DNA from: a bacterium
GTDB taxonomy: Bacteria > JAHJDO01
NCBI GenBank assembly: GCA_018812485.1
Contig: JAHJDO010000042.1
Coordinates: 9,512 to 73,511 of the forward strand
Direction of reading: 5' to 3'
Length of the DNA stretch: 64,000 bases
The translations under genes and the position numbers were made by a program. Under the pieces are notes generated by a model. That model was not told the DNA's origin. It saw only the letters and a list, made by a program, of their open reading frames with translations, and searched no databases. Every line of letters starts with the position of its first letter. The stretch's first letter is position 1. Below, in pieces: positions 10,285-54,027 of the stretch.

Positions 10285-10291
10285 AAAACTA

Positions 10292-11437: not shown

Positions 11438-11456
11438 TAGAAAGAAGCTGTGAGTA

Positions 11457-28258: not shown

Positions 28259-29155
28259 ATGTCTGCAAGGATTGACAATATAATTTTAGGAGATAACCAA
28301 TTTTCAGGCGTTAATCATTTATCTCAAGCTCTCGGACAACTCAAGGCAATCAAGTTTCAGGATGATAACGAAATTAAAAAAATAATCGAATATGCGATCT
28401 CTCAAGGGGCGCAAGGCATGATGTTATCAACCCATGCAGAAGTGGAAAGGATTCTTAATATTATTAGAAACGACGATCTTCTTCAGAATAATCTTAATAT
28501 TTACCCCAATATTCCTGATATTGCTAAATATGTAAGACGAGCAACAACGCAGGGTGGAATAACAGGGCTAATGAAATCTATCCTGAGTCAGCTCAGCTTC
28601 GGTATGAAAGCCAGTCTTATAATTGAGGGCGGAAAAGGTCTGATGAAAAAAGATATTCTCAAGATGTTAGAAGTATTAATAGATTTAGAGATGGCTTTTT
28701 TTAGAGGTTTGAAAATAAAAGCCATATTTCTACATACCATAGTTGTTGATTTAGCGCTTGGCCTTGGCCTTGACCAAATACTTTCACACTACTATTCTTA
28801 TATAAAGGATAAATATAATGTTATTCCCGGTTTTGGGACTCTAAATCTGCCAAAACTTCTTAATAAACTCCAGATGTTAGGGATTGATTACCCGTTGATA
28901 ATGACATCGGTTAACAAAAAAGGATTTTATATGAATCCAAGCAAGGCAGCATGTGAAGAAGTTATAAACGATGGTAAGTGCGAGATTTTAGCAATAGGAA
29001 CGCTTGCATCCGGAGCCATTTCTCTGCGTGAAGCGTATGAATATCTTTTTTCATTTCATAACATAAAATCATTAGTCATCGGCGCATCAACTAAAGATCA
29101 TATTAAACAGTCTTTCGATTTGGTGAAGTCTTACCATGCTCATAGGCAACAATAG
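28259..29155 (+). CDS. Hypothetical protein
   Basis: The 298-aa ORF is co-directional and tightly packed with its neighbours. I recognise no motif in it. Confidence 0.3.
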   Translation: MSARIDNIILGDNQFSGVNHLSQALGQLKAIKFQDDNEIKKIIEYAISQGAQGMMLSTHAEVERILNIIRNDDLLQNNLNIYPNIPDIAKYVRRATTQGGITGLMKSILSQLSFGMKASLIIEGGKGLMKKDILKMLEVLIDLEMAFFRGLKIKAIFLHTIVVDLALGLGLDQILSHYYSYIKDKYNVIPGFGTLNLPKLLNKLQMLGIDYPLIMTSVNKKGFYMNPSKAACEEVINDGKCEILAIGTLASGAISLREAYEYLFSFHNIKSLVIGASTKDHIKQSFDLVKSYHAHRQQ

Positions 29156-35932: not shown

Positions 35933-36988
35933 ATGAGTTCGAAGCTTACGACACTTATTAGAGGGCGTAAGGCAATGTTTAGCCTGTTGAAGTGTAAATT
36001 TAGCAAGAAGCGTATTCCGGTCAGAGCAAGCTTTTTGGTAACGAAATATTGCAATCTGAGATGCTTTTATTGTTACACTAAGGATATTCTAAATGATAAA
36101 AACGTACACGAGCCAACCATTGATGAGTTAAAAAACACTATTGATCAAATTTATGAGGCTGGATGCCGCTGGATAAACATTTTAGGTGGCGAGCCTCTTA
36201 TGAGAGATGATATCGAAGAATTCATTAATTATGTCAGTAATAAAGGAATGTTTATGGAGATAACCACAAATGGTTTTTTCGTAAAGAAGAGGATAAAAGC
36301 ATTAAAGAAAGTAGATCATCTTTGTATAAGTTTGGATGGAAATAAAGAGTCTAATGATAAAAGTCGCGGTAAAGGATCTTTTGAGAAAATCGTTGAAGGG
36401 ATTGAATACGCTGTAACAAACGGTCTAAGCGTAAGAGTACATGCGACACTATGCAAAAGGACAATGCAGGGTAAATCATTGGAGTTTTTGTCAGATTTTT
36501 GCAACAGACTGAAAATAAAACTGAACTATTCAGAGAACGGTCTGCCAGGAATAGAGAAGATGGATCCTGATTTTCTTCTTTCCAGAGAGGAAACCATGAA
36601 TTTCTACAGAAGTTATAAAAGTTTAAGGAATAAAGGATTTCCTATAATTAGTTCAGACGTGGCGGTAGAATATGCATCAAAATGGCCTCTTCAAGGACAG
36701 ACAATCATTTATAAGAAAGACCTTCACAAAATTCCAAAAGGCAGTTTTTATCCCTGTGAGCTTGGGAGAAGCCAATGTTTTATTACCAGTGACGGTTATG
36801 TATACCCTTGTTCAAAAAAATGGGGTTATGGGAAAAATCTATATGAGGTAGGATTTAAAGAAGCTTGGAATTATTTGGAAAATCTAGACTGCGTAGCTTG
36901 TAAAGAGCTTGGGACTATAGAGCAAAGTCTTATTACAGGTCTTAATCCCAGCGCTTTGTTCAACGCCATAACAAATTTTGCGCTATAA
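35933..36988 (+). CDS. Radical SAM/SPASM-domain protein
   Basis: The cluster motif is VTKYCNLRCFYCY with GGEPLM. The C-terminal region is CFITSDGYVYPCSKKWGYG...CVACKELG. It is a paralog of the 16623 gene. Confidence 0.7.
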   Translation: MSSKLTTLIRGRKAMFSLLKCKFSKKRIPVRASFLVTKYCNLRCFYCYTKDILNDKNVHEPTIDELKNTIDQIYEAGCRWINILGGEPLMRDDIEEFINYVSNKGMFMEITTNGFFVKKRIKALKKVDHLCISLDGNKESNDKSRGKGSFEKIVEGIEYAVTNGLSVRVHATLCKRTMQGKSLEFLSDFCNRLKIKLNYSENGLPGIEKMDPDFLLSREETMNFYRSYKSLRNKGFPIISSDVAVEYASKWPLQGQTIIYKKDLHKIPKGSFYPCELGRSQCFITSDGYVYPCSKKWGYGKNLYEVGFKEAWNYLENLDCVACKELGTIEQSLITGLNPSALFNAITNFAL

Positions 36989-37007
36989 ATTTAAAGGAAT
37001 TAAAGTC

Positions 37008-37625
37008 ATGAACTGTAAATATTGTATAGATGATATAAAGTACACAGTGGAAGTTGTTGATATAGAGACAAAGTGCAAATATCATAAGAAAATAGGAGAG
37101 GTATATTCGTCATCAGCGGTTGCTCCTGCTGGTTTATGCCGCGAACTTTTTTACACAGCTTATCCAAGATGCCTGGCTGTGCTTTACAGCGGAAAGCCTA
37201 CGCGCGGATGGTTAAGGGGAAAAGGAGTGCGGAGTATGACTGTTCGGTGTCCTGCAGCAAACGGCATAAAAGTATTGATTAGAGTAGAAGATATTTTTAT
37301 CCCGCCGATACGCATGGTTAAGGAGCTTGTTGAAGAATTATGTAAAGTTATATATAGGCCATTGGATGGTCCTTTTAGAAAAGTTGCTATTGAGATTATT
37401 GAAACAGGTTCCGATTGTCCAAAAGGATATCACATGGGAGATACCTTTTACTTTAATGTAGATAAGCAAGATGAATTGTGTCCTGCTGGGTTTGCAACTA
37501 TATATCCATATTTAAGGCGTATGAGAAATACCAAGAAAAATAATGGTTTGCTACACTCAATTAAAGTGCACTGTCCTGATTGTGTCGGCGTAACATATAA
37601 TGTAACTATTAAAGAAGATAAATGA
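37008..37625 (+). CDS. Cys-rich protein with two internal repeats, resembling the uncharacterised TIGR04076 family
   Basis: Two copies of the module C-P-x3-5-G-x2-F ... P-x-G-(F/L)-C-x3-(I/F)-Y-(P/T)-Y are present: CRELFYTAYPRC...VRCPAANGIKV and DCPKGYHMGDTFYF...ELCPAGFATIYPYL...HCPDCVG. I place the start at the ATG at 37008, which has an AAAGGA ribosome-binding site. Confidence 0.4.
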   Translation: MNCKYCIDDIKYTVEVVDIETKCKYHKKIGEVYSSSAVAPAGLCRELFYTAYPRCLAVLYSGKPTRGWLRGKGVRSMTVRCPAANGIKVLIRVEDIFIPPIRMVKELVEELCKVIYRPLDGPFRKVAIEIIETGSDCPKGYHMGDTFYFNVDKQDELCPAGFATIYPYLRRMRNTKKNNGLLHSIKVHCPDCVGVTYNVTIKEDK

Positions 37626-37647
37626 TGTTGTTGTAATCGGAGGTTTT

Positions 37648-38142
37648 ATGCAAGATTTTAAAAATATTTGTAAATTCTGTAATGAGATAAAGTTGAATTT
37701 GGTTTGCGGTGGTAAAGAATTCGTATTGGGCGATATATTACCCGATAATATTTGTCCTCTTGCTTTTCATAGTATCTATCCTTATATAATTACCCTTTCG
37801 AAAGGCGGCTGGCTTAATTGGGTGGGGCATGATGAACATGTTATTGTAAATTGTCCATTTGGGCGTGGTGTCGCTATGTACGTTAAGGCTCCTTCTTTAA
37901 AATCACAACAGTATCTAGAAGTTGAGGTGATGAAAATCAGAGAGAATAACGAATGTTATAAAGGATATGTGTTAAAAAAAGTTTTTCAATTTAATATAAG
38001 CGATGAGAATATGTTTAAGTTGGGGTTATTATATAGATCTATTCCTTTTATTCTAAGCAGAGATGATGATAACAATAGTGATCCGATGGAAATTTGTTAC
38101 AATTTTGAAGGGGAAAAAGTTCAATGTCAGGTGGAGTTTTGA
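37648..38142 (+). CDS. Cys-rich TIGR04076-like protein, paralog of the upstream gene
   Basis: ICPLAFHSIYPYIITLSKGGWLNW...VNCPFGRGVAMYVKA parallels CRELFYTAYPRCLAVLYSGKPTRGWL...VRCPAANGIKVLIRV in the upstream protein. A GGAGG ribosome-binding site precedes the start. Confidence 0.4.
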   Translation: MQDFKNICKFCNEIKLNLVCGGKEFVLGDILPDNICPLAFHSIYPYIITLSKGGWLNWVGHDEHVIVNCPFGRGVAMYVKAPSLKSQQYLEVEVMKIRENNECYKGYVLKKVFQFNISDENMFKLGLLYRSIPFILSRDDDNNSDPMEICYNFEGEKVQCQVEF

Positions 38143-38948
38143 TAGATAAACTACGAAATAAGACTGTGCTGATTACTGGCGCATCGAAGGGAATTGGTAG
38201 GGCTATAGCCCTACTATTCAGCGGTTACAATATGAAAATTGGTTTGATAGCTCGTTCTGAAGATAAACTTAAAGAGGTATCCAATTGTGTGAATTCAGCT
38301 GGTGGCGAAGCTTTGATATTAAATACAGATTTGAGGGATCGAAAAGCCATAGAAGATGCAGTGCTTGAATTTAAAAATAAATTTGGTGAACCTGATTTTT
38401 TAATTAATAATGCAGGAATAGCTGCTCGTGGTTTTTGGCAGGATATTTCGCTTGATTCAGAGCTTGATGTAATGAACGTTAATTACACAGCAGCTGTTAT
38501 TCTTATGCGCCTTCTGTTGCCTGGTATGATGCAAGCCGACAGTGGGCATATAATAAATATTAGTGCGATTGCAGGAATATATACTGCTCCATATCAGGGA
38601 GCATATTGTGCAAGCAAGGCAGCTCTCCTGGCTTATTCAGTAAGTCTTGGTTATGAGTTAGAGAAGACAAATGTAAAGATTTCCTCAATATTATTTCCAG
38701 GTCCAGTCGATACTGATTTTTTGAAAAGCCCAAATTTTGAAAGTTTTAGAAAATTTAAAGATATAATATCTCCAGACCTTATAGCTCAGAGCGTTCTGTC
38801 AGTAATTGAGAATCCAAAAGAAATGGTTTTCGTAGGGCCACTATGGAAATTAATTGCAGCAAAGATTGCAAGTTTAAAGCCCGAATTCTTCAGGAAAATA
38901 ATTGAAAAAAAGAATACGCCTCCAGAATCTCTTGATGTTTTTAAGTAA
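38124..38948 (+). CDS. Short-chain dehydrogenase/reductase (classical SDR)
   Basis: VLITGASKGIGRAIA is the TGxxxGxG motif. NNAG is present, and the catalytic tetrad has Y at YCASKAA (YxxxK). Confidence 0.75.
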   Translation: MSGGVLIDKLRNKTVLITGASKGIGRAIALLFSGYNMKIGLIARSEDKLKEVSNCVNSAGGEALILNTDLRDRKAIEDAVLEFKNKFGEPDFLINNAGIAARGFWQDISLDSELDVMNVNYTAAVILMRLLLPGMMQADSGHIINISAIAGIYTAPYQGAYCASKAALLAYSVSLGYELEKTNVKISSILFPGPVDTDFLKSPNFESFRKFKDIISPDLIAQSVLSVIENPKEMVFVGPLWKLIAAKIASLKPEFFRKIIEKKNTPPESLDVFK

Positions 38949-38953
38949 ATATT

Positions 38954-40015
38954 ATGTTTGAAATTATTCTAGGATATATAGATTTTTTGTCTCTAAGAAA
39001 ACTTGGAGTGCTACCCAGAGCTGTGCGGGGCGTGTTCGATAGAGCTGTTCTTAAAAAGCCCCATTTAAGAGTAGCAGAGATTGCTACAACATTCATGTGT
39101 AATTCCAATTGTATAATGTGCTCTTGCGCAAAATTCTACAATTGCGAAAAAGAGAAAAACCGAATGAGTGTTTCTGAATATAAATCTCTTGGCAGGGAGC
39201 TTGACAAACTCGGATGTATTTCTGTAAATGTCACTGGAGGAGAACCGCTCATTCGTAAAGATATTGACGATGTAATTATCGCATTAAAGCCAAAAAATAA
39301 AATTGTTAATTTAATAACCAATGGAATTAATTTAACTCGTGAGAAAATAAAATATTATTCATCCATTGGTATTGACAGTATTGTTGTTAGTCTGGAAAGC
39401 ATTTCTGCAGAGGAGAATGATAAAATTCGTGGGCATGAGGGTCATTTTCAGGTAGTTATGAATGCAATTCAGTGGGCTAAGGAAGAAAAAGTCAAGTTTG
39501 GTATTAGTCTTACACTTGGAGATTTTAATTTTAAAAAAGTCTATGAACTGATTCAGTTTGCGCAAAGCAAATCGATTTTTCTTTGTATTGCCCATTGCGG
39601 TAGTATCGGAAAATGGGCAGGCAATGATTCAATGTTTCTATCTGGAAAAAACGCAATAAAAGTAATCAGCTTAATCAAAAAACATGGTAAGATTAAAATA
39701 GACTTCAGCGCAAATCTCAGCTTAAAGCCGGGCTGTCCGGCTTTTATTGAGAAGATATATATTACGCCGTATGGTGATGTACTGCCATGTACCTTTAATC
39801 CTATCTCGTTTGGTAATCTTCGCGAAGAATCTCTATCAATCATCTGGAACCGCATGTTAAAATTTTATAACGAAAATGTGCATAGTAAAACATTATGCTT
39901 GCGAAGTTATGATAAGGAATTTATTGGGAAATTCCTTAATCCTATAAAAAACATGAAACAGCCTGTACGGATAGATGAACATCCATATTTCAAAACACAT
40001 GGAAGTTTAAAATAG
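38954..40015 (+). CDS. Radical SAM/SPASM-domain protein
   Basis: The cluster motif is ATTFMCNSNCIMCSC followed by TGGEPLI. The C-terminal Cys pairs are CPAFIEKIYITPYGDVLPC and CLRSY. Confidence 0.7.
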   Translation: MFEIILGYIDFLSLRKLGVLPRAVRGVFDRAVLKKPHLRVAEIATTFMCNSNCIMCSCAKFYNCEKEKNRMSVSEYKSLGRELDKLGCISVNVTGGEPLIRKDIDDVIIALKPKNKIVNLITNGINLTREKIKYYSSIGIDSIVVSLESISAEENDKIRGHEGHFQVVMNAIQWAKEEKVKFGISLTLGDFNFKKVYELIQFAQSKSIFLCIAHCGSIGKWAGNDSMFLSGKNAIKVISLIKKHGKIKIDFSANLSLKPGCPAFIEKIYITPYGDVLPCTFNPISFGNLREESLSIIWNRMLKFYNENVHSKTLCLRSYDKEFIGKFLNPIKNMKQPVRIDEHPYFKTHGSLK

Positions 40016-40016
40016 G

Positions 40017-40832
40017 ATGAGTATGACGAAAACCCTGAATTTTCTTAGAGATAGAATAAAGACTGTGCCGGAAATCCTTATAATATTGGGATCCGGTTTT
40101 GCGAAAGTAGCAGATAAGATGAAAATAAGAGTCGAAATACCTTATCAGGATATACCTCATTTCAAGAAGACAAGTGCACCTACTCATAGCGGTAATCTTA
40201 TAGCCGGGAAAATAAACGGCAGGGATGTATTAGTGATGCAGGGCAGGTATCATGTTTACGAAGGTTATGAAATTAGTTTTACTACTTATCCCGTGCGCGT
40301 GGCAGCCGAATTAGGAGTAAAAAAATTAATAACCACTAACTTATCCGGCGGTATTAACGAGAATTTTAACATAGGTGATTTTATGCTTGTCAAAGATCAC
40401 CTAAATGTATCCGGTGTCAACCCTTTGATTTGGGATTCAGGGAGAACATCCGGTCAATTTACAGATATGTATGAAGCATATTCTTCGCATTTAATCAGGC
40501 TGTTAGAAAGGTCCGCTTCTGAATTGGGTATTACCTTGCATAAGGGAGTATTGGCCTATCTAACTGGTCCTAATTTTGAAACCCGATCTGAATTAAAAAT
40601 GTTAAAACTTCTGGGTGCAGATGCTGTTGGTTGGTCTCTGGTGCCGGAAGTTCTGGAAGCTCGCAGATATGGCATGGACGTTTTAGGTATCGTTTGCATC
40701 AGTGACCTTTCCAATCCGGATAGCTTCAACCCTGTTAATTTAGAAGAGATATATCAAATCGGAAAAGAAAAAGCTGACACACTATTTCTCTTACTGGCGA
40801 GTTTTATGTCTAAATTGCAGAATGGAGCTTAA
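40017..40832 (+). CDS. Phosphorylase of the purine nucleoside phosphorylase / 5'-methylthioadenosine phosphorylase family (PNP/MTAP family 2)
   Basis: ILGSGFAKVADKM, HSGNLIAGKINGRDVLVMQGRYHVYEGY and GPNFETRSELKMLKLLGADAVGWSLVPEV match conserved blocks of trimeric PNP/MTAP. Confidence 0.7.
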   Translation: MSMTKTLNFLRDRIKTVPEILIILGSGFAKVADKMKIRVEIPYQDIPHFKKTSAPTHSGNLIAGKINGRDVLVMQGRYHVYEGYEISFTTYPVRVAAELGVKKLITTNLSGGINENFNIGDFMLVKDHLNVSGVNPLIWDSGRTSGQFTDMYEAYSSHLIRLLERSASELGITLHKGVLAYLTGPNFETRSELKMLKLLGADAVGWSLVPEVLEARRYGMDVLGIVCISDLSNPDSFNPVNLEEIYQIGKEKADTLFLLLASFMSKLQNGA

Positions 40833-40840
40833 TTGGCTGG

Positions 40841-41521
40841 ATGAAAAAACTAATTAAAATAAGACGATATAAAAATGAAAAGCATTACGAAGTAAATATA
40901 GATGGATTAAAGCGATTATGTCCATTATATAAAGTTGCTCCTGAGACCTGGATTGTTGGAAATGAGCATATCTCTTTCGGCACAGATATAGAGTTTACTC
41001 AAAAAATTGGGAGAAAGCTGGCAGAAAAAATATCTAAGTTTAAAGCAGATTGTATTTTAACAGCAGAAGCTAAATCTCTGGGCGCAGCTTATGAAGTTGC
41101 TAGAAATTTGGGTCACAAAAATTTTGCCATCGCCAGGAAAAGCATCAAGCCGTATGACAAGAATTACATTTCCACGGAAATAAAATCAATAACATCCGCA
41201 AAAAAAGAGCTTCTGTACTTAGATGATTTCAACATTGCCCGCATTAGAGGTAAAAAGATAGTGCTATTTGATGACGTTATCTCCACATGCAGTACCATGC
41301 TCGGACTTATAGAACTGGCAAAAAAGGCAGGGGCAGAAGTTTGCGCTATGGCAGCAATCTGGCTGGAAGGCTCTTTGGTCTTTGAACAGTTCATAGAGGA
41401 ATTTAAAGCGGGGCGGTTAATACATATAGATATTCTTCCTATTTTTACCATTGGTAAAACCTATGACAAATTACGCAATAAAAATATTTCTATTGAAAGG
41501 CTTTTAGAGCGTCGGAGATAA
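40841..41521 (+). CDS. Type I phosphoribosyltransferase-domain protein, possibly an adenine/purine PRTase
   Basis: The PRPP-binding motif is KIVLFDDVISTCSTMLGLIELAKKAGAEV (hydrophobic-DD-hydrophobic...T). The gene sits immediately after the PNP/MTAP-like gene. Confidence 0.45.
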   Translation: MKKLIKIRRYKNEKHYEVNIDGLKRLCPLYKVAPETWIVGNEHISFGTDIEFTQKIGRKLAEKISKFKADCILTAEAKSLGAAYEVARNLGHKNFAIARKSIKPYDKNYISTEIKSITSAKKELLYLDDFNIARIRGKKIVLFDDVISTCSTMLGLIELAKKAGAEVCAMAAIWLEGSLVFEQFIEEFKAGRLIHIDILPIFTIGKTYDKLRNKNISIERLLERRR

Positions 41522-41523
41522 CA

Positions 41524-42468
41524 ATGAAAGGAAAATACCCTGGAGCTTATAATTTTCTGAAAACTATTGGAGTAAGAAAAGAAGAAAGCGTTCTTATACT
41601 GACGGACGAGCTTGCGGAGAGTGATGCAATCCAGGTAATAAGAAGGGTATTTTATGATAAATGTTCAAAAGTCAATGTAGAAACTCTACCCCTGGAACTT
41701 CAACATGATTTTCCCGAGAACGTTTGTCAGCTAATCGAAGATTTTGATGTAATAATTCTGGCAGCCAGCCAGTCCTGGTACCAGGTTCCAGCGAGAAGAA
41801 AGGCCAAGTACCGGAGCAAAAAACGGGTAGTGGAATGTTATAATTTGACATTGGAAATGATGAAGGAAGGTGCGTTATGTGCTAATTATGAAGACATCAG
41901 GCTTTTTACAGCGGATTATAAGAAAAGCTTTAAGCTCGGAGCTTCTTTGACCATAAAAACAGACCAAGGTACGAATCTTTCAGCAGTAATTAGAGATGTA
42001 TTTGATGAGACTGGGTGTTATGATAAGCCCGGGTCTGGCGGGAATTTACCGGCAGGCGAAATTTCTTTAGGAGTAACAGAAGGCGAGACCTATGGAGAAA
42101 TAGTTTTCGATATTAGCTTTGATGTACTTGGCAGATTAGAGAAAAAACCGCTAAAAGTTTTCGTAGATAAAGGCCGGGTAGTGAAAGTTGAGGGCAAGTC
42201 TAGAGAAAATTTCGAGAAATTATTTGAAAATGATGAGTACTTGCGTAATGTTGCAGAAGTAGGAATTGGTACTAATAGTTATGCTATTATAGGGCGGTCA
42301 GTGCTGGAAGATGAGAAAAAAACAGGGACAGCTCATATCGGTTTTGGAAATGACACATATTTTGGCGGTAATGTAGAAGGCTGTCATTTAGATGGAGTTT
42401 TCTTATCGCCAAAAATTACTGTAGATGGCAAAGATGTAATCGGAGATTTAGTGAGCAATAAAAGATGA
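41524..42468 (+). CDS. M29 (AmpS/PepS)-like aminopeptidase-fold protein, or hypothetical protein
   Basis: GNLPAGEISLGV and TAHIGFGND resemble the conserved GN(I/L)PSGE and HiAxG blocks of family M29. At 314 aa it is shorter than typical members. Confidence 0.35.
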   Translation: MKGKYPGAYNFLKTIGVRKEESVLILTDELAESDAIQVIRRVFYDKCSKVNVETLPLELQHDFPENVCQLIEDFDVIILAASQSWYQVPARRKAKYRSKKRVVECYNLTLEMMKEGALCANYEDIRLFTADYKKSFKLGASLTIKTDQGTNLSAVIRDVFDETGCYDKPGSGGNLPAGEISLGVTEGETYGEIVFDISFDVLGRLEKKPLKVFVDKGRVVKVEGKSRENFEKLFENDEYLRNVAEVGIGTNSYAIIGRSVLEDEKKTGTAHIGFGNDTYFGGNVEGCHLDGVFLSPKITVDGKDVIGDLVSNKR

Positions 42469-43517
42469 TAGGGAAAATACGCAGGTTTTTATCTCCTGCT
42501 GCAAAAGAGAAGATTTTAAATTCTCTGCCATATAAATTTTTAACTCGTATTCGATTGCATAGGCACGAGATACGATTTAGCTGCGAGTTGACAACCAGAT
42601 GTAATGCTAAGTGTGATATCTGTACTCGGGACTCTCTTATTAAAAAGGGGCAGCTATATGTTGGCGATATGGGAAAAGATCTTATCAAACGTGTTATGGA
42701 GGAGATTAAGAAATTTCATAATGATGGAAGACGTATTTATTTTGTGCCTATGGGTTTAGGTGAACCGCTTTTATATAAGGGCTTATTTGACTTGTTTCAG
42801 GACATTAAATATATTTCAAAAAAAATTGGCATCGTACTTGTGACTAATGGACTTTCACTTGATGACCGTTGTTGTAAAGAACTTATTTCCTTGGGAATTG
42901 ATGAAGTTACTGTCAGTTTAAATGCTATCAACGCTTCAAGTTATCAACAACATATGGGTGTGGATGGGTATGATAAAGTTTGTCATAATATTGAAAATTT
43001 AATAAATTTGCGTAACAAAAGTGGCAAAAAACTGCCGAATGTCTTCGTTCAATATATTGACTATGACAATAATCAAAAATTATTTCAAAAAGCTGTCAAG
43101 AGATGGTCGAACATAATGCGATACAACGACAAGTGTTATGTTCACCCTATTATGAATCAGGCTAATTTCTTTTTAGGCGAATGTACGTCCAAATATTCAG
43201 ATGTGAGATATCCCTGCACTCAACCTCTATGGAGAATCGCAATAAAAGTTAATGGAGATATTTATCCATGTGATCCTAGTTTTTATTCCGGGAACCAAAA
43301 AATAACTTTTCTTTATCTGGGCAATATCATAAATAAAAGCCCCTTTGATATATTGATGAACAAAAAGAGCAAGCCATTTAAGATATTGGAAAGTATGCGA
43401 AAAGATGATTACTCACAAATTCCCGAATGTGCGAAGTGCAACACTTATAAATTAGAATGCAATTCTTATTTTGAACTTCCCAGGCCATTGAGGACTAAGG
43501 AATGTAAATGGCTATGA
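42465..43517 (+). CDS. Radical SAM/SPASM-domain protein
   Basis: The cluster motif is LTTRCNAKCDICTRD followed by GLGEPLL. The C-terminal region is CTQPLWRIAIKVNGDIYPCDP...CAKCNTYKLEC. Confidence 0.7.
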   Translation: MIGKIRRFLSPAAKEKILNSLPYKFLTRIRLHRHEIRFSCELTTRCNAKCDICTRDSLIKKGQLYVGDMGKDLIKRVMEEIKKFHNDGRRIYFVPMGLGEPLLYKGLFDLFQDIKYISKKIGIVLVTNGLSLDDRCCKELISLGIDEVTVSLNAINASSYQQHMGVDGYDKVCHNIENLINLRNKSGKKLPNVFVQYIDYDNNQKLFQKAVKRWSNIMRYNDKCYVHPIMNQANFFLGECTSKYSDVRYPCTQPLWRIAIKVNGDIYPCDPSFYSGNQKITFLYLGNIINKSPFDILMNKKSKPFKILESMRKDDYSQIPECAKCNTYKLECNSYFELPRPLRTKECKWL

Positions 43518-44473
43518 ATAAAAAAACTGTTTTTGTTACTGGTGGAACAGGAAAGATCGGGCACTCTTTAGTTGCTCGCTTAGCATCACTTGGTTTTTGT
43601 GTAAAAGTATTATCAAGAAGGCAAGATTATCCTTGGGATGGGATTGATAACATCCAAATTATTAAGGGAGATATTCTTGATGAAGAGACTGTTCGAAAAG
43701 GGCTTGAAGGATGTGATTATTTGTTCCATCTGGCTGTTTACCAGAATATTAACGATAAAAGAAAAGACATGTTTCGACGAATTAATGTTGAAGGAACAAA
43801 AACAATTTTAAATTCTTCAATAAATTCAGGTATTGAGAGGGTTGTATATGTTTCCACGGCGATGGCCTTTCAGGCAACAGGAAAGCTTGAAAGAGATGAG
43901 AAATGGATTCAAAAAATCTCCTGTACATGTGACAATTATCTTCAGACAAAGATAGAAGCATTAGCGCTCGTCCGTCAGATGAAGAAAGTTTTACCCGTTG
44001 TTATTGTTTATCCAACGGCAGTTATAGATTTAAAGGATTTTTCTTCCTCAGCGCCGGTTCAATCTACAGGATGGCAAAATTTTTTGTGGAGAAGGGTAGG
44101 CGGAGGAATTCCAGGAGGTTTGATTAGTCTCATTGGTTCTAAAGACAGAATTTTTAATTATGTCGTTGTTGATGATTTGGTTGAGGGCATAATTCAGGCG
44201 GCGATAGTTGGTCAAGCCGGGGAAGAATATATTTTAGGAGGAGAGAATATCACGGCAGAGAATTATTTGCGCGCTGCTTCTCAACGAGTGAGTAAAAAAG
44301 TGTTTGCTTTTCGAATTCCGATTTATCCTTTTAAAGTCATTTCTCGATTTCGGCGATTCGTATCAGTAACGCCGATTATTAACTTAATATCGCAGAATTC
44401 CCAAGGCGATATGTGCTTTTCTTCTGAGAAAGCCATGAAAATTTTGGGATATAATCCAAAGCTAAAACTTTAA
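43508..44473 (+). CDS. NAD-dependent epimerase/dehydratase of the extended SDR family
   Basis: The N-terminal Rossmann motif is VFVTGGTGKIGHSLVARL, and the YxxxK-like region is YLQTKIEA. Confidence 0.65.
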   Translation: MAMNKKTVFVTGGTGKIGHSLVARLASLGFCVKVLSRRQDYPWDGIDNIQIIKGDILDEETVRKGLEGCDYLFHLAVYQNINDKRKDMFRRINVEGTKTILNSSINSGIERVVYVSTAMAFQATGKLERDEKWIQKISCTCDNYLQTKIEALALVRQMKKVLPVVIVYPTAVIDLKDFSSSAPVQSTGWQNFLWRRVGGGIPGGLISLIGSKDRIFNYVVVDDLVEGIIQAAIVGQAGEEYILGGENITAENYLRAASQRVSKKVFAFRIPIYPFKVISRFRRFVSVTPIINLISQNSQGDMCFSSEKAMKILGYNPKLKL

Positions 44474-44477
44474 AACA

Positions 44478-46031
44478 ATGGCGGAAGTATTACTTTTTAA
44501 TCAGTATTTTACTTCAGATGCAAAATCTCCAGATAGGATATTGGCGACGCTGCCAATAAATCTATTATGTCTTGGCTCATATTTAAAAGACAAAGACATA
44601 AGTTGTAAAATATACGAATTAGGAATCTTTGATTTCGATAAAATTATTGTAAAAAATGACAGGATAAGATGCGGAATTAGCGATGAAGAAATAATATCTA
44701 TAATAAAAAATGAGGCTCCAAAGATAATAGGTCTGGGATGTGTGTATTCAAGGCATTATATTGATATCATATCAATAACCAGATTAATAAAAAAAATAGA
44801 TCCTTTTATAAAAGTTGTACTGGGCGGTAATCATGCTACTGCTTTTTACGATATGGTGTTAAAAGAACCAACCGTTGATTTTGTAGTAAGGGGCGAGGGA
44901 GAAATAACATTCCATGAATTATGCGATGAAATTCTTTCCAATAACAATGGGTTTAAAAATATAAGCGGACTTGCCTATAATTCCGATGGAAGTATTCTAA
45001 AGACCAAAGATAGAGAATTAATTAAAGATCTGGATGAGCTGCCTAATGATTATTCGCTTTTAGATGTCGAACAATACGCTAATGTTGCTTATACAACGCC
45101 ATTTTTGATGAGATATCCTGCTATTGGAATCATCTCCAGCCGTGGATGTCCTGGCAATTGTATATATTGTACAGTTAAAGCAGTTTGGGGGAGAACATGG
45201 AGAGCTAAAAGCGCAAAAAAGACAGTTGATGAGATGGAATTACTTTATAAGAATTACGGGGTCAAGGAAATTTTATTTTTAGACGATAGCGCCTCTATTG
45301 ATAAAAAAAGATGGAGCAGTATATGTGACGAAATTATAAATAGAAAATTGAATATAAGATGGACAACGCCTAACGGGATTGCGCATTGGACACTAGACAA
45401 ACCAATTTTAAAAAAAATGTATAAATCAGGTTGTTATCGAATTACCTTTGGTATTGAATCAGGTAATCCTGAAACAAGGAAATTTTTAGGTAAATCCTTT
45501 CCGCTTTCTCAAGCAAAGGAGATAATTGAGTACGCAAATAAAATAGGTATGTGGACGATCTGTACAAACATATTGGGGTTTCCATATGAAACGGGGAAAG
45601 CAATGGAGGATACTATAAAATTTGCGCAAAAGTCAGGAACAGATTTTGCAACATTTTATCTACTTGCTCCTTTAGTTACTTCTGATGTTTACAACTGTTT
45701 CAAAAAAGAAGGCTTACTTAATTTCGATCATATCTTTAAGGATAACGTCTTTGATGAAAAAAAATACGAGGAAATGAACAAGATAGTCAACGACGGAGGT
45801 ACGCCTACGAAGAATTTCAGCCCCGAAGAACTAAAACGGATCCAAGAAAAAGCTTATAGAAGATTTCTTATTTATCGCTTAATAACCTATATCGTTAAAC
45901 CAGCGCATTTATTGAGAAAAATACGGTCTGTAGAAAGTCTGATGTATACGATAAGACTTATATCATCGGGGTTAAAAATTTTCATAAAGACTTTTTATAA
46001 AAAAACAACCAAGGCGTTGTTATATGAATAA
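44478..46031 (+). CDS. B12-binding-domain radical SAM protein (class B-like)
   Basis: The N-terminal B12-like domain precedes SSRGCPGNCIYCTVK. At 517 aa it is the longest of the six. Confidence 0.75.
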   Translation: MAEVLLFNQYFTSDAKSPDRILATLPINLLCLGSYLKDKDISCKIYELGIFDFDKIIVKNDRIRCGISDEEIISIIKNEAPKIIGLGCVYSRHYIDIISITRLIKKIDPFIKVVLGGNHATAFYDMVLKEPTVDFVVRGEGEITFHELCDEILSNNNGFKNISGLAYNSDGSILKTKDRELIKDLDELPNDYSLLDVEQYANVAYTTPFLMRYPAIGIISSRGCPGNCIYCTVKAVWGRTWRAKSAKKTVDEMELLYKNYGVKEILFLDDSASIDKKRWSSICDEIINRKLNIRWTTPNGIAHWTLDKPILKKMYKSGCYRITFGIESGNPETRKFLGKSFPLSQAKEIIEYANKIGMWTICTNILGFPYETGKAMEDTIKFAQKSGTDFATFYLLAPLVTSDVYNCFKKEGLLNFDHIFKDNVFDEKKYEEMNKIVNDGGTPTKNFSPEELKRIQEKAYRRFLIYRLITYIVKPAHLLRKIRSVESLMYTIRLISSGLKIFIKTFYKKTTKALLYE

Positions 46032-46059: not shown

Positions 46060-46869
46060 ATGAATACAGGAGAAAGACCTATTTCAGATTCATTTGAATC
46101 ATTACCCTCGCTTATGAAAGAAACGTATAAACTTTGTATAGAATATGTCAAAAATAAAGACGTATTAGATATTGGCTGCGGTGAAGGTTATGTAGATCTG
46201 TATCTCAGTGATGTGGCTAAACATGTGGCTGGCATAGATGTTGATCAAGGAGTTGTAGACAAAGCAAATAAACTATTTTCCGAAAAAAATATGACTTTTT
46301 ATAGAATGTCAGGTGATGATTTAAAATTCCAATCTAATTCATTTGATGTTATTATATCGTCGCAGTCTATTGAGCATATGAAAAATGATGAAAAATTCTT
46401 AAGCGAGGTACATAGGCTATTGAAAAACAATGGGATTTTTATTTGTACAACACCTAATAAACTTGCAATGGTTCCTCCGGGTGAAAAGATATATAATGAT
46501 CCGTTTTATCCATTTCACGTTAGAGAATACATGCCCCATCAATTCTATGGTTTATTGAGCAAGTATTTCAGAGAAGTCAAAAAGGTCTGTTTTTATAATC
46601 CTGATCGAAGCCTAAAATTGATTAAAAATCCAAGAGCAAAATTTATTTATCGAATAAGCCGTTTTAGAATCGTTAGGTGGCTTGGCAGAAATTCACCGTT
46701 AAGCCTAAAAGAATTTATTTTGTTTTTTAGGCAGAAGGAGTTAAAACCAAAAGATATGGGAACAGCTGTTTGTGATTATAACGATAAGTTAGACCTAGTT
46801 CCAGAAGTTTTATGCGGTATATGTATAAAAATAGCCGAGAGGAATAAAAAGGGGAAAGATTCTGAATGA
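46060..46869 (+). CDS. Class I SAM-dependent methyltransferase
   Basis: Motif I is VLDIGCGEGYVDLYL, and DVIISSQSIEHM is a post-II motif. Confidence 0.65.
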   Translation: MNTGERPISDSFESLPSLMKETYKLCIEYVKNKDVLDIGCGEGYVDLYLSDVAKHVAGIDVDQGVVDKANKLFSEKNMTFYRMSGDDLKFQSNSFDVIISSQSIEHMKNDEKFLSEVHRLLKNNGIFICTTPNKLAMVPPGEKIYNDPFYPFHVREYMPHQFYGLLSKYFREVKKVCFYNPDRSLKLIKNPRAKFIYRISRFRIVRWLGRNSPLSLKEFILFFRQKELKPKDMGTAVCDYNDKLDLVPEVLCGICIKIAERNKKGKDSE

Positions 46870-48611
46870 ATATAAAACCTAATCAATATATTTTCTTTTT
46901 AATATTATACATAGTTTTACTAGCACTCGCGTTAGCCCCTTATTATATAAACAATACAATTATATTAGGTATGGAAGGCGACTATGTTTTGGATTTTTCC
47001 GCTCATTTAAGCAAATTTACTTTTATGTGGTTTCCCGTCTATGGCGTTGGTTTACAAAATATGTCTCCGAGCGGGACAGGTCTTAATATTCTTTTGCTTT
47101 GCTTAATTGAAAAGTTGACAGGAAGTATACCTATCACGAATTTTGTTTTAATATTTTCAATTTATTTCTTTCCCTTTTTAGCCATGTATTTAGTATGTAA
47201 GGCAATAAAAGCAACTCCTTTTACCTCGTTTGCTATAGCGCTCTTTTATGTTTTTAATCCTTTTGTACTTTATTATCTGACTTGCATAAATCAATGGAAT
47301 GTTTTTGGTGTGACTGTAATGCCCATGTTTTTATGGGTTATCTTGAAGTACTATCATAGCAATTTTAAATTATTCTTTTTCTTTGGACTTATATCAGCGT
47401 GTTTTTCCTTTACTTATAGCAATCCCCCAATACTGGTAATAATACACATTTCAGTTGTGTTTTCCATGGTTATGGTGTCTTATTATCGTAATAAAAAATT
47501 TATCCTTTTAGAAATACTCAAAAAATATAGCATTGTAATTGTATCATTTATTGCATTCAATCTTTGGTGGATTTTGAACCTTTTTGTTGGGGCAGTAGCA
47601 ACCGCGAAAGAAATATATTCAGCCTCGTGGGCGCACTCTTGGTTAAACACAACAGTAAGCGGGCATAGGCCTATCCTTGCCAGGATGTTTTCTATTACAA
47701 CAATGATTGGAATTAACCCTTCATGGGACTTCTTTACGTGGTGGTATAGTACCATGCTTGCGAGATTAATTACTCTTGTCCCTATTTTTATGATAATTTA
47801 TTTCGTGCTGATGGTTAAAAGTAAAAAAACGAGAAATTCATTAAATCTAGCAATTTTTAGCACATTATTACTTGTATTATTTTTTGTAAAAGGGAATGCA
47901 AGTCCGTTTGGTTTTATTTACGATTTAATGTTCAAACATCTCCCATTTTTTTATATCTTTAAATCTCCTGTGGAAAAATTTGGACTCCTCTATATATTTA
48001 TTTTATCTGTGTTGCTGTTATTGATTATGAACGGTATTAAGGCTCATAAGTACTATAAACCAATCCTGTGTATATTTACAGTTTACTTAATCGTTTGCAG
48101 TGTACCTGTTCTTACAGGGAATATTATCCCCGATTATAATCTTGGCTCTTTGGGATATGGTTCGAGAAAGTATAAAGATAAAAATGGATACAGGCAGTTT
48201 AGAGAATCAGTTAATAAGGATAATTTCCAGTATAGAATTTTTAGTTTACCTGGTGTTGGAAACTATCAGGTATGTCTGCCTAACTATAACGGCAAGAAAT
48301 ACACCGGATTAGATCCTGTTCTCATGAATACTAATAAGCCTTTTATTGCGCCTTATAACGGAATAGGTGTACTATACAATAATATCTCTTCAGCTAAGTA
48401 TGCAAAACTTTTGGGAATATATAATATCGGGAAAATAATGATTAATGAAGATCTTATACCATGGTTTGGAATCATGGAAAAGGAAAGCATTCCGGAATTA
48501 AAAACAATATTTGATAAATCCATGGCATCAAAAAAATGGGAAAACATAACTCTTTACAATAATGAAGATTATTTTTTGCCGCGTATTTACACTTCAGGTA
48601 ATTCTAATTGA
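46866..48611 (+). CDS. Polytopic integral membrane protein (GT-C/YfhO-like or polymerase-like; function unknown)
   Basis: The 581-aa translation has at least 12 transmembrane segments in the first ~430 aa and a ~150-aa C-terminal soluble domain. Its N-terminus resembles that of the final ORF in the window. Confidence 0.4.
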   Translation: MNIKPNQYIFFLILYIVLLALALAPYYINNTIILGMEGDYVLDFSAHLSKFTFMWFPVYGVGLQNMSPSGTGLNILLLCLIEKLTGSIPITNFVLIFSIYFFPFLAMYLVCKAIKATPFTSFAIALFYVFNPFVLYYLTCINQWNVFGVTVMPMFLWVILKYYHSNFKLFFFFGLISACFSFTYSNPPILVIIHISVVFSMVMVSYYRNKKFILLEILKKYSIVIVSFIAFNLWWILNLFVGAVATAKEIYSASWAHSWLNTTVSGHRPILARMFSITTMIGINPSWDFFTWWYSTMLARLITLVPIFMIIYFVLMVKSKKTRNSLNLAIFSTLLLVLFFVKGNASPFGFIYDLMFKHLPFFYIFKSPVEKFGLLYIFILSVLLLLIMNGIKAHKYYKPILCIFTVYLIVCSVPVLTGNIIPDYNLGSLGYGSRKYKDKNGYRQFRESVNKDNFQYRIFSLPGVGNYQVCLPNYNGKKYTGLDPVLMNTNKPFIAPYNGIGVLYNNISSAKYAKLLGIYNIGKIMINEDLIPWFGIMEKESIPELKTIFDKSMASKKWENITLYNNEDYFLPRIYTSGNSN

Positions 48612-54023: not shown

Positions 54024-54027
54024 AAAA

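Follow-up and report, generated by a model that had tools for sequence, protein, structure and literature searches.

Why does a giant sugar-polymer locus rich in radical SAM genes carry a purine nucleoside phosphorylase (PNP) directly followed by a phosphoribosyltransferase? The original prediction for the window (the whole stretch of 64,000 nucleotides analyzed here) took the two genes, at positions 40017 to 41521, for a PNP/MTAP-family phosphorylase and a salvage partner that dispose of the 5′-deoxyadenosine released by twelve radical SAM enzymes. Pfam and NCBIfam confirmed both genes on the plus strand (40017 to 40832 and 40841 to 41521), and the count of radical SAM genes in the window by Pfam was exactly 12. 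Six of them are B12 binding (starts at 7963, 31472, 32994, 34423, 44478, and 51691), five belong to the SPASM/twitch type (starts at 12790, 16623, 35933, 38954, and 42465), and the remaining one is a GT2::radical SAM fusion (start at 24946).

The pair lies within a run of closely packed genes, all on the plus strand. The run includes a radical SAM gene of 351 amino acids (aa) (35933 to 36988; Pfam Radical_SAM, Fer4_12, and SPASM/twitch), a TIGR04076-repeat protein with two domains and eight conserved Cys residues (protein a, 36978 to 37625; 60.6 bits versus an NCBIfam cutoff of 33), and a second, TIGR04076-like protein (protein b, 37648 to 38142; 32.4 bits versus the same cutoff). Then come a short-chain dehydrogenase/reductase (SDR) of 274 aa (38124 to 38948; Pfam adh_short, E = 1e-46) and a SPASM radical SAM of 353 aa (38954 to 40015; Pfam Radical_SAM and SPASM), whose TAG stop codon (40013 to 40015) is located 1 nucleotide (nt) ahead of the ATG of the phosphorylase. 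The latter, hereafter the cassette PNP, has 271 aa if it starts at 40017; the alternative ATG at 40023 corresponds to the database protein P0001 (269 aa), and the 271-aa form had no exact match in the database. A gap of 8 nt separates it from the phosphoribosyltransferase (226 aa), and 2 nt further on begins the third member of what we call the trio, a metalloenzyme of 314 aa with an M29/NicX fold (41524 to 42468). The stop of this gene is overlapped by 4 nt by another SPASM radical SAM (42465 to 43517, 350 aa; Pfam), a possible cassette member.

The cassette PNP matched Pfam PNP_UDP_1 (E = 1e-41) and passed the NCBIfam models PRK08202, “purine-nucleoside phosphorylase” (287 bits versus a cutoff of 218), and TIGR01697 (254 versus 197), while it fell below the cutoff of the inosine/guanosine-specific equivalog TIGR01700 (242.5 versus 293 bits). 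It also stayed below the cutoffs of the MTAP models (73 bits versus 275 for TIGR01694 and 78 versus 382 for NF006334), and the HpnG model was absent among its NCBIfam matches at an E value of ≤0.01. The identity was 38% to human PNP and 25% to human MTAP, and the closest PNP chain in the PDB was 8swu (E = 2e-60). Judged by sequence, it is a PunA-type trimeric PNP and not an MTAP by descent, so that of the predicted PNP/MTAP label the phosphorylase family stood and MTAP ancestry did not. NCBI annotates P0001 as a plain purine-nucleoside phosphorylase. The clade around it has 27 members and is rare (27 clusters in a set of 5.8 billion proteins); a scan of genome contigs with the single cassette PNP protein recovered generic PNPs only, at 39% identity.

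We compared the active sites using human PNP numbering and a published list of ligands (PMC5074518 and PMC9916683). Trimeric PNPs (PunA/mammalian type, NP-I) and the cassette PNP have fold, descent, and the phosphate and 2′/3′-OH ligands in common; among the phosphate and ribose ligands, S33, H64, R84, H86, Y88, and S220 were kept in 26 or all 27 clade members, with H64, R84, H86, Y88, and S220 showing no variation. However, where trimeric PNPs have Asn243, His257, Ala116, Met219, and Thr221, the cassette PNP has Asp, an aliphatic residue, Leu, Trp, and an aliphatic residue, respectively, and its gene belongs to a radical SAM cassette and not to a nucleoside catabolism operon. Asp243 was present in 27 of 27 members and His257 was replaced in all of them (Leu in 21, Ile in 4, and Met and Phe in 1 each). 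The changes A116L, M219W, and T221 to an aliphatic residue were invariant as well, with V260I/L as a further change in the ribose site. The window protein itself has L116, W219, L221, S242, D243, L257, and I260.

In a three-way alignment, D243 and L257 of the cassette PNP coincided with Asp220 and Val233 of MTAP, i.e., both enzymes have Asp at the base position and a hydrophobic residue at the 5′ position. We take His257 to be the ligand of the ribose 5′-OH in PNP and Val233 to line the 5′-alkylthio pocket in MTAP. With regard to the base, the change N243D in the trimeric PNPs of K. lactis and human reversed specificity to adenosine by experiment (PMC5074518). The similarity to MTAP is partial, since Ser takes the place of the second Asp of MTAP (D222) in the alignment and Glu201, which binds N1-H of 6-oxopurines, persists where MTAP has Ser178. 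Given that Glu201 is retained, 6-oxo substrates, e.g., 5′-deoxyinosine, are still conceivable. Overall, the comparison with MTAP and PNP indicated an active site that is not 6-oxopurine specific, and the signature fits substrates of the 5′-deoxyadenosine type, an identity that we infer from the known roles of the substituted residues. S-adenosylhomocysteine (SAH) is conceivable as a substrate too, but nothing spoke in its favor.

Other PunA-type PNPs showed the same coupling between the two positions. D243 was paired with loss of His257 in 22 of 23 cases and N243 with its retention in 57 of 70, a covariation expected if adenine specificity evolves jointly with 5′-deoxy-type substrates. For instance, the Bacteroidota-type PunA PNPs (PDB 4lna; P0037, P0095, and P0118) are an independent lineage with Asp243 and Ile/Leu257, and the same two changes point to the same substrate class. 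Unlike the cassette PNP, with which they form no clade, they keep Ala116, Met219, and Thr221 and have no linkage to phosphoribosyltransferase, M29-like, or TIGR04076 genes (0 of 83 control loci).

The predicted chemistry of the cassette PNP would be that of MTAP, giving adenine plus 5-deoxy(thio)ribose-1-phosphate. MTAP/MtnP also phosphorolyses 5′-deoxyadenosine, as a step of the DHAP shunt and of 7-deoxysedoheptulose synthesis (PMC8102628 and PMC6079011). Nevertheless, the DHAP shunt includes, besides MtnP or MtnN plus MtnK, an MtnA-type isomerase and a class II aldolase (PMC6079011), while the partners here are APRT-like and M29-like; Pfam detected neither an MtnA-type isomerase nor a class II aldolase in the ORFs of the window or in 10 related contexts.

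The second enzyme of the pair matched Pfam Pribosyltran (E = 2.5e-10). Its closest NCBIfam model was PRK07322, “adenine phosphoribosyltransferase,” with 132.8 bits, marginally below the cutoff of 143 and 66 bits ahead of the other NCBIfam matches, while OPRT models reached at most 28 bits, and UPRT and PyrR were absent among the NCBIfam matches listed. The closest PDB entries were the APRT-annotated 5zgo and 6fsp (E = 4e-26), presumably the Thermus thermophilus enzyme, as the PDB table gives the molecule name only. The APRT of this organism (TthAPRT) has been expressed, and its activity has been investigated (PMC6317416). In an alignment with 5zgo, the PRPP/PPi motifs IARK and DDVISTCST of the window protein fall on VARK and DDVVSTGST. 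The enzyme is closest to APRT and not to OPRT, UPRT, or PyrR, and, going by its nearest APRT-annotated relatives, the base would be adenine. Compared with 5zgo/6fsp, it is extended at the N terminus, carries a short insertion, and has a conserved extra stretch of ca. 45 aa at the C terminus, and Cys stands where the PRPP loop canonically has Gly (STCST). This Gly was kept in 7 of 10 compared relatives, and Cys was found, as in the window, in the other three (L004, L006, and L093).

The third enzyme was harder to place. The Pfam-A search with the ORF gave no match at an E value of ≤0.01, and the single sequence matched nothing in the PDB, although a precomputed match assigned it to PF26233 (NicX). 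The profile of its family against the PDB retrieved the 2,5-dihydroxypyridine dioxygenase NicX (1.4e-17) and M29 aminopeptidases (ca. 1e-4). Along similar lines, the AF2 model (pLDDT of 94) gave Foldseek TM scores of 0.75 to NicX and ca. 0.6 to M29 (E values of 1e-20 and 4e-13 for NicX and AmpT/PepS, respectively), at 12 to 18% identity. It has the fold of NicX and of the M29 aminopeptidases (AmpS, AmpT, and PepS), is ca. 100 residues shorter than the latter, and keeps the Glu/Glu/His/His/Asp set aligned with the M29 metal ligands (E179, E245, and H271 invariant in the family and H288 and D290 nearly so). In two proteins (P0150 and P0158), it is naturally fused to the phosphoribosyltransferase, and relatives of the latter therefore sometimes occur as the PRTase::M29-like form.

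The trio had the same gene order in 10 of 11 contexts. The phosphoribosyltransferase, M29-like, and TIGR04076 genes were each present in 8 of 9 loci with a cassette PNP versus 0 of 83 generic PNP loci (Fisher P = 1e-10). For these controls, we reused the 80 generic PNP loci obtained in a metagenome scan with the clade alignment, a scan that used patterns common to all PNPs. The trio is co-inherited with one SPASM radical SAM and TIGR04076 pair, usually accompanied by a reductase, and the phosphorylase/phosphoribosyltransferase pair is part of a rare, conserved, and uncharacterized cassette rather than an ad hoc addition to the locus. To our knowledge, there is no precedent for the obligatory linkage of an M29-fold enzyme to a nucleoside phosphorylase and a phosphoribosyltransferase. 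If this were ordinary housekeeping purine salvage (PunA plus Apt) that had landed in the locus by chance, the generic NCBI name of P0001 and the passing of the generic PRK08202 cutoff would be easily accounted for. However, the active-site signature is invariant and noncanonical in the clade, the synteny found in 10 of 11 contexts has no counterpart among the 83 generic PNP loci, the family is rare, and the protein fails the TIGR01700 equivalog. The signature and the result of the controls led us to reject such hitchhiking, to which we assign hardly any probability.

Radical SAM genes were found within 10 kb of the cassette PNP in 11 of 11 contexts, and their number ranged from 1 to 12. At the lower end, L004 is a compact six-gene operon that holds the cassette with only one radical SAM gene and is devoid of glycan genes. 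Given the linkage of the trio to its partners and the single radical SAM of this operon, the module is specific to the cassette rather than a general means of clearance for the twelve enzymes. Three genes for the by-product of one radical SAM seem excessive for clearance alone, and neither the M29-like partner nor the phosphoribosyltransferase fusion has a role in such a scheme. A simple pair for recycling adenine and clearing the by-product accounts neither for the obligatory third enzyme nor for the tie to the radical SAM and TIGR04076 genes. The original interpretation is, on the whole, partly supported: a salvage route agrees with the substrate site, the type of phosphoribosyltransferase, and the constant presence of radical SAM genes, but not as a plain pair.

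The explanation that we favor, with a probability of roughly 45%, is that the cassette PNP is a phosphorylase of adenine nucleosides that lack the 5′-OH, acting in an adenosyl processing route dedicated to the cassette. Its substrate would most likely be 5′-deoxyadenosine from radical SAM enzymes, possibly also 5′-methylthioadenosine, and its products would be adenine and 5-deoxyribose-1-phosphate; the APRT-like enzyme would then convert adenine and PRPP to AMP. Both would work inside a fixed three-enzyme module with the M29/NicX-fold metallohydrolase, in genetic linkage with one SPASM radical SAM and TIGR04076 pair and usually with an NAD(P) reductase. Such a route, with a presumed direction of flux and a presumed fate of the sugar phosphate, would be neither housekeeping purine salvage nor a generic addition to a radical-SAM-rich locus. 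The M29-like partner and its fusions, the missing isomerase and aldolase genes, the three genes that L004 spends on a single radical SAM, the retained Glu201, and the Cys in the PRPP loop count against it.

Orthologues of the radical SAM at 35933 adjoin a TIGR04076 ORF in L004, L006, L093, and L096 (33 to 82% identity), those of the one at 38954 were found in L093 and L096 (70 to 72%), and L093 also has an orthologue of the one at 42465 (61%). A SPASM radical SAM follows the trio in L006, L094, L096, and L097 as well. An SDR, ADH, or AKR gene is part of the cassette or adjoins it in L004, L093, L011, L094, L096, and L097, and in L096 (9797 to 11104) the counterpart of TIGR04076-like protein b is fused to an SDR. 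The AF2 model of TIGR04076 protein a (pLDDT of 81.5) had no neighbor in the PDB, and searching the literature for this family turned up just two genome annotations, both incidental.

A radical SAM coupled to an adenine-removing enzyme of the PNP_UDP_1 superfamily is also found in the HpnH/HpnG and MqnE/MqnB systems; HpnH adenosylates diploptene, the PNP homologue HpnG removes adenine, and the addition catalyzed by MqnE is analogous (PMC13459092). By analogy, the radical SAM and TIGR04076 proteins might add the 5′-deoxyadenosyl radical to the C=C bond of a sugar or lipid intermediate, and the cassette PNP would strip adenine from the resulting 5′-C-substituted adenosine, leaving a skeleton extended by ribose-1-phosphate for the reductase and the M29-like enzyme to finish while APRT recycles adenine. 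Besides having this precedent, adduct processing would make sense of the tie to one radical SAM and TIGR04076 pair plus reductase, down to the single radical SAM of L004, and would give the SDR a role comparable to that in the conversion of ribosylhopane to bacteriohopanetetrol. It needs the loss of the 5′-OH ligand and adenine specificity just as much as phosphorolysis of 5′-deoxyadenosine does. Furthermore, HpnA-like and HpnJ/BchE-like genes adjoin the cassette, with HpnA (151 bits) and HpnJ (167 bits) as best or near-best named matches, although both are far below their cutoffs.

Against it, the radical SAMs of the cassette are not orthologues of HpnH or MqnE. The NCBIfam matches of the one at 35933 were generic and subthreshold (AhbC, MoaA, and HpnH); versus a cutoff of 225 bits, the HpnH model gave 77, 54, and 66 bits for the ORFs at 35933, 38954, and 16623, respectively, and MqnE was not among the 25 best named matches of these three. 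An HpnH-like nature of the cassette radical SAMs was discarded, as the similarity was only generic and subthreshold. The cassette PNP belongs to the PunA branch and not to the HpnG/MTAN branch, so that its relationship with HpnG is at the superfamily level only, and hopanoid or menaquinone genes are absent. Bulky Leu116, Trp219, and Leu/Phe257 open no obvious channel that would take a large 5′ substituent; the replacements are at least as large as the original residues, and, going by residue size, the pocket would probably suit a small 5′-CH3 better than a bulky adduct. For all its precedent, we consider adduct processing unlikely.

The glycan setting suggests another use for the sugar. The mtx cluster of M. 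tuberculosis reportedly includes the MTA phosphorylase Rv0535 (as attributed to Angala et al., 2017). The lipid-linked donor of mycobacterial methylthioxylose (MTX) is made by Rv0539/MtxS (PMC12088412). On this model, 5-deoxyribose-1-phosphate (or methylthioribose-1-phosphate) might be activated, epimerized, attached to polyprenyl phosphate through a small GT2, and passed on by a GT-C, ending up as a 5-deoxypentofuranose in the glycan. The product of the cassette PNP would indeed be a sugar-1-phosphate, and 10 of the 11 contexts are glycan loci. A GT2 of 237 to 247 aa is located directly upstream of the cassette PNP in L094, L095, and L097 and aligns, end to end but weakly, with the polyprenyl-phosphate sugar synthases AglJ, PpgS, and ArnC; the window as well as L012, L093, L094, and L097 contain PMT_2-type GT-C genes, and the trio has epimerase genes on its flanks. 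However, the GT2 similarities (30 to 50 bits) do not come near the cutoffs, no nucleotidyltransferase gene is a constant neighbor, glycosyltransferases are lacking altogether in L004 despite its cassette, and neither the M29-like enzyme nor the linkage of radical SAM and TIGR04076 genes is accounted for. We regard a role as a glycan building block as improbable.

Only one scheme has a role for every conserved gene of the cassette, namely, a cycle in which adenine serves as a handle for turning PRPP into an unusual pentose-1-phosphate. The phosphoribosyltransferase would make AMP, the M29-like enzyme would dephosphorylate it, the radical SAM, TIGR04076, and reductase proteins would modify C5′, and the cassette PNP would release the modified ribose-1-phosphate and regenerate adenine. 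The PRTase::M29 fusions would then join consecutive steps, and the six-gene operon of L004 would be self-sufficient. Moreover, a relative of the phosphoribosyltransferase, PDB 7f06 (E = 1e-11), is an adenine phosphopsicosyltransferase by annotation, suggesting that enzymes related to it can build unusual nucleotides. On the other hand, we know of no phosphatase with an M29/NicX fold, the M29 metal-ligand positions are kept, and the cycle is inferential throughout, including a radical SAM that acts on a nucleoside. In our opinion, it is a long shot.

Coming back to the dedicated adenosyl processing route that we favor, the SAM-derived ribose may, on this evidence, just as well be an intermediate of the pathway or a building block. 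That it is built into a product, either as an adenosyl adduct to an unsaturated sugar or with 5-deoxyribose-1-phosphate as a glycan residue, is possible but rather doubtful. If it were so, the cassette PNP would act in biosynthesis, and what counts as “waste” of radical SAM enzymes would supply carbon for the polymer; the adduct branch would amount to making a higher-carbon sugar for a bacterial glycan in the way of hopanoids (HpnH/HpnG).

5′-Deoxyadenosine is an inhibitory by-product of the radical SAM superfamily, one of the largest enzyme superfamilies, and its disposal has been worked out only recently and only for routes based on MTAN or MTAP (the DHAP shunt and 7-deoxysedoheptulose synthesis). 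In uncultivated bacteria, the cassette would be another kind of solution, self-contained in genetic terms and built around a PunA-type PNP that evolution has altered exactly at the residues for base and 5′ specificity. The signature L116/W219/D243/L257 may be used to predict substrates within the PNP family, and the cassette is the first lead to the function of the TIGR04076 family and of this M29 subfamily. Should the sugar phosphate be put to use instead of discarded, it would represent a new way to make unusual glycan sugars.

By Pfam annotation of all large ORFs, the window is a single very large same-strand glycan-assembly locus (ca. 3.7 to 62.7 kb). Besides glycosyltransferases of the GT2, GT4, and GT9 families and numerous methyltransferases, it encodes a flippase, membrane proteins of the PMT_2 and YfhO-like types, nucleotide-sugar enzymes, a nucleotidyltransferase, a split transketolase, a DegT aminotransferase, and a GHMP kinase. 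Pfam also counted exactly twelve radical SAM proteins (six B12 binding, five SPASM/twitch, and one fused to a GT2), the number on which the original prediction had built its proposal that a PNP/MTAP-family phosphorylase and a phosphoribosyltransferase (PRTase) clear the 5'-deoxyadenosine that these enzymes release. Both genes of this pair are present on the + strand, spanning precisely 40017-41521, and since almost no spacing separates them from their neighbors, they are almost certainly cotranscribed with them. Elsewhere in the locus, a 680-aa protein (24946-26988) has the unusual architecture of an N-terminal GT2 and a C-terminal radical SAM domain, which suggests radical chemistry directly coupled to glycosyl transfer, and a 779-aa protein (29136-31475) joins an alkaline-phosphatase-superfamily domain (Phosphodiest, Sulfatase, Metalloenzyme) to a class I SAM methyltransferase. 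Within one group of large ORFs (20252-23740, 46866-48611, 58493-60616, 60627-61577, 61637-62746, and 28259-29155), a 1162-aa membrane protein matched only YfhO, at its C terminus, and the five others had no family match in Pfam and/or NCBIfam; presumably, they are novel glycan-assembly or polymerase components. The top NCBIfam match of the GT2 at 9451-10284 was TIGR04283, "arsenosugar biosynthesis glycosyltransferase" (86 bits; cutoff of 182), arsenosugars being another class of products for which a radical SAM enzyme transfers the 5'-deoxyadenosyl group. Divergently upstream, on the - strand, are a DUF1559 (SBP_bac_10) protein and an HTH-cupin regulator (2213-2917 and 2973-3542). The DUF1559 family is typical of PVC-group bacteria, and together with a GC content of ca. 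35%, this gives a hint that the host may resemble Omnitrophota or Planctomycetota.

The phosphorylase (40017-40832, + strand, 271 aa) belongs to the PNP_UDP_1 family (Pfam E value of 1e-41). In NCBIfam it scored above the cutoff of the purine-nucleoside phosphorylase PRK08202 (287 versus 218 bits) but fell far short of that of the MTAP equivalog (73 versus 275 bits), and its top solved relatives in the PDB were PNP chains (2e-60), with MTAPs at ca. 1e-13. When 5.8 billion proteins were searched, the window protein (P0001, annotated as "purine-nucleoside phosphorylase [bacterium]" and nothing more) and a few close relatives ranked above thousands of generic PNPs; in a neighbor-joining tree, the 27 closest proteins among the best 120 matches formed an exclusive clade, here referred to as PNP*. 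We aligned these 120 matches with human PNP, whose numbering is used throughout; the human PNP and MTAP references were confirmed to be identical to PDB chains 1pf7_E and 1cb0_A. Unchanged in PNP* are the phosphate and 2'/3'-hydroxyl ligands (Ser33, His64, Arg84, His86, Tyr88, and Ser220) and also Glu201. All 27 members carry Leu in place of Ala116, Trp for Met219, Leu, Ile, Met, or Val for Thr221, Ser for Thr242, and Asp for Asn243; His257 is replaced by Leu (21), Ile (4), Met (1), or Phe (1), and Val260 by Ile or Leu in 26 of the 27. In a three-way alignment, Asp243 and Leu257 of PNP* correspond to Asp220 and Val233 of MTAP. Val233 of MTAP lines the 5'-alkylthio pocket, and His257 of PNP binds the 5'-hydroxyl. 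The equivalents of Ala116, Met219, His257, and Val260 line the ribose site, and that of Asn243 is the O6 ligand setting 6-oxopurine specificity (PMC5074518, PMC9916683); its replacement by Asp reverses the specificity to adenosine in the trimeric enzymes of K. lactis and human (PMC5074518). Among the other 93 PunA-type PNPs, His257 was lost in 22 of the 23 with Asp243 and kept in 57 of the 70 with Asn243, a covariation that would be expected if adenine specificity evolves along with substrates lacking a 5'-hydroxyl. At two decisive positions, the PunA scaffold of PNP* has converged on MTAP, and three further bulky hydrophobic changes are its own. None of the replacement residues is smaller than the one it replaces; from this comparison of residue size, and not from structure, we infer that the 5' pocket takes a small hydrophobic group, for example the 5'-deoxyadenosine methyl. 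The active site is thus not that of a 6-oxopurine-specific enzyme, with Asp243 and an aliphatic residue or Phe at position 257.

The second gene (40841-41521, + strand) encodes a 226-aa type I PRTase (Pfam E value of 2.5e-10). Its top family was the PRK07322 "adenine phosphoribosyltransferase" subfamily (132.8 bits, slightly below the cutoff of 143), and OPRT-type models gave at most 28 bits. The nearest structures were the APRT-annotated 5zgo and 6fsp (4e-26), presumably both Thermus thermophilus APRT, and no sign of an orotate, uracil, or PyrR-type enzyme was seen. As the active site of the phosphorylase is not 6-oxopurine specific either, neither of the two outcomes named as refuting the original prediction occurred. 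PMC6317416 describes the expression of T. thermophilus APRT and a study of its activity. When the window protein was aligned with the 5zgo APRT, two fusion proteins, and eight related-locus orthologues, the PRPP and pyrophosphate motifs "ARK" and "DDV(V/I)STGST" were conserved; the Gly of the PRPP motif is Cys in the copies of the window and of loci L004, L006, and L093, and the subfamily has a specific C-terminal extension of ca. 45 residues. The third gene (41524-42468) encodes a protein of ca. 310 aa with a precomputed Pfam NicX domain, whose family profile matched NicX (1.4e-17) and the M29 aminopeptidases (ca. 1e-4) in the PDB. Its AlphaFold model (pLDDT of 94) superposed on NicX at a TM score of 0.75, and Glu, Glu, His, His, and Asp are kept in the family at positions aligned with the M29 metal ligands. 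In two metagenomic proteins, P0150 (544 aa, 10001-11635 of locus L097) and P0158 (550 aa), the PRTase and the M29-like domain form one chain of ca. 545 residues; directly upstream of the P0150 fusion is a 271-aa gene assigned to the PNP_UDP_1 family. As Rosetta-stone evidence, these natural fusions argue that the two enzymes would act together.

Exact-sequence look-ups provided ten further independent contexts of the clade, and co-occurrence was therefore based on eleven, including the window. The order PNP*, PRTase, M29-like protein was found in 10 of them (the window and nine of the ten others). Blastp searches with the window proteins covered every ORF in nine PNP* loci and in 83 control loci, the generic-PNP by-catch of two collection scans. 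The PRTase, the M29-like protein, and proteins with TIGR04076 repeats were each found in 8/9 PNP* loci versus 0/83 controls (Fisher P = 1e-10). An explanation by hitch-hiking housekeeping genes is rejected on this control result and on the active-site signature. The TIGR04076 ORF adjoins a SPASM radical SAM gene in every case. Reductases recur as well: L096 (9797-11104) has a fusion of a TIGR04076 domain and an SDR, an aldo-keto reductase with an Fe-S domain precedes the TIGR04076 ORF in L094 and L097, and an SDR or alcohol dehydrogenase lies directly 5' of PNP* in L004, L093, and L011. In the window, the contiguous block at 35933-42468 comprises a radical SAM, two TIGR04076 proteins, an SDR, a second radical SAM, PNP*, the PRTase, and the M29-like protein, an order repeated in L093. 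In L004/L005, the cassette forms a compact operon of six genes (radical SAM, TIGR04076 repeat protein, SDR, PNP*, PRTase, M29-like) with one radical SAM, unrelated flanking genes, and no glycan genes within 10 kb; the remaining contexts are radical-SAM-rich glycan loci (3 to 7 radical SAM genes per 20 kb). The only context without PRTase and M29-like genes, L012 (10001-11280), has a 288-aa PNP* with Phe at 257, a 413-nt gap 3' of it, and the TIGR04076 ORF and SPASM radical SAM directly upstream. The TIGR04076-repeat proteins (36978-37625 and 37648-38142 in the window; 8085-9206 in L004) are Cys rich, with 8 conserved Cys. No structural neighbor of their AF2 model (pLDDT of 81.5) was found in the PDB, and they may represent a new fold or an Fe-S/Zn partner of the radical SAM. 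The cassette is rare, with 27 protein clusters for PNP*, about 43 for the M29 subfamily, and 23 for TIGR04076 in 5.8 billion proteins. Homologue names in two family searches ("bacterium," Deltaproteobacteria, "Candidatus Scalindua," Spirochaetales, Uhrbacteria, and Pseudomonadota MAGs) point to uncultivated bacteria, although not every homologue is confirmed within a cassette. The literature searched contained no characterization of PNP*, the M29 subfamily, or TIGR04076.

The single most likely explanation, to which we assign a probability of about 0.45, a little below even odds, is a cassette-tied salvage route dedicated to nucleosides of the 5'-deoxyadenosine type. PNP* would perform an adenine-specific phosphorolysis of a nucleoside without a 5'-hydroxyl, and the PRTase would recycle the adenine in a coupled step; this part of the original prediction is what the sequences best support. 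Its system-level part has to be revised, because the module is a fixed component of a cassette that also occurs with a single radical SAM, and was not added on account of twelve; because plain clearance would not require its obligatory third enzyme, which in some cases forms one chain with the PRTase; and because no enzymes for disposal of 5-deoxyribose-1-phosphate (MtnA-type isomerase, class II aldolase), as used in the DHAP shunt (PMC6079011), were found in any of the eleven contexts. An adenine-handle cycle, running from the PRTase through the M29-like protein as a nucleotidase and the radical SAM with its reductase to PNP*, would give every gene a role and explain the fusion, but the M29 fold would need an unprecedented activity. 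Split transketolase or E1-like ThDP enzyme pairs also recur in PNP* loci (53193-54963 in the window, 3477-5244 in L010, 6564-8308 in L011, 6354-8302 in L012, and 7097-8244 in L095). They could add C2 branches to sugars or, by analogy with the transketolase that makes 7-deoxysedoheptulose from 5-deoxyribose (PMC8102628), could act on the PNP* product.

A rival explanation is adduct processing. HpnH adds the 5'-deoxyadenosyl radical to diploptene, the PNP homologue HpnG takes off the adenine, and MqnE catalyzes an analogous addition (PMC13459092). Likewise, the cassette radical SAM would adenosylate a substrate and PNP* would remove the adenine, giving coherent roles to radical SAM, phosphorylase, reductase, and APRT. 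The top NCBIfam match of the epimerase directly 3' of the cassette (43508-44473) was the hopanoid-associated HpnA (151 bits; cutoff of 368), and the next B12-radical SAM (44478-46031) matched BchE (193 bits) and HpnJ (167 bits), both below cutoffs. However, every Hpn similarity is far under its cutoff, PNP* does not resemble HpnG, and the bulk of its pocket residues speaks against a large 5' substituent; the window has no squalene-hopene cyclase. The glycan setting would fit another scheme, in which the phosphorylase turns a SAM by-product into a sugar-1-phosphate building block. Angala et al. reportedly described this in 2017 for the Mycobacterium tuberculosis methylthioxylose cluster, where a glycan-locus phosphorylase is said to make such a sugar-1-phosphate, which, after activation and epimerization, a small GT2 loads onto polyprenyl phosphate for transfer by a GT-C enzyme; the role of MtxS in that pathway is stated in PMC12088412. 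Three loci have a small GT2 directly 5' of PNP*, and PNP* loci often carry PMT_2 and epimerase genes, but L004 has no glycosyltransferase.

Known 5'-deoxyadenosine routes start with MTAN or MTAP and continue either through the DHAP shunt or through promiscuous phosphatase and transketolase reactions (PMC6079011, PMC8102628), whereas the salvage proposed here would recruit a different scaffold, of the PunA type, and different partners. The conversion of a PunA PNP to an adenine/5'-deoxy enzyme is probably not unique to PNP*, because a second, independent PunA lineage, mostly of Bacteroidota (P0029, P0034, P0036, P0037, P0095, P0118, and others, including PDB 4lna), likewise has Asp243 and Ile or Leu (or Phe) at 257. 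This group also has Thr33 and Leu200 but lacks the other PNP* changes (Ala116, Met219, and Thr221 are canonical) and the partner genes, and at least one member has a solved, apparently uncharacterized structure. These "PNPs" are probably misannotated housekeeping adenosine, MTA, or 5'-deoxyadenosine phosphorylases. As for the PNP* cassette, if SAM-derived ribose does enter the glycan, the interest of the finding would rise.
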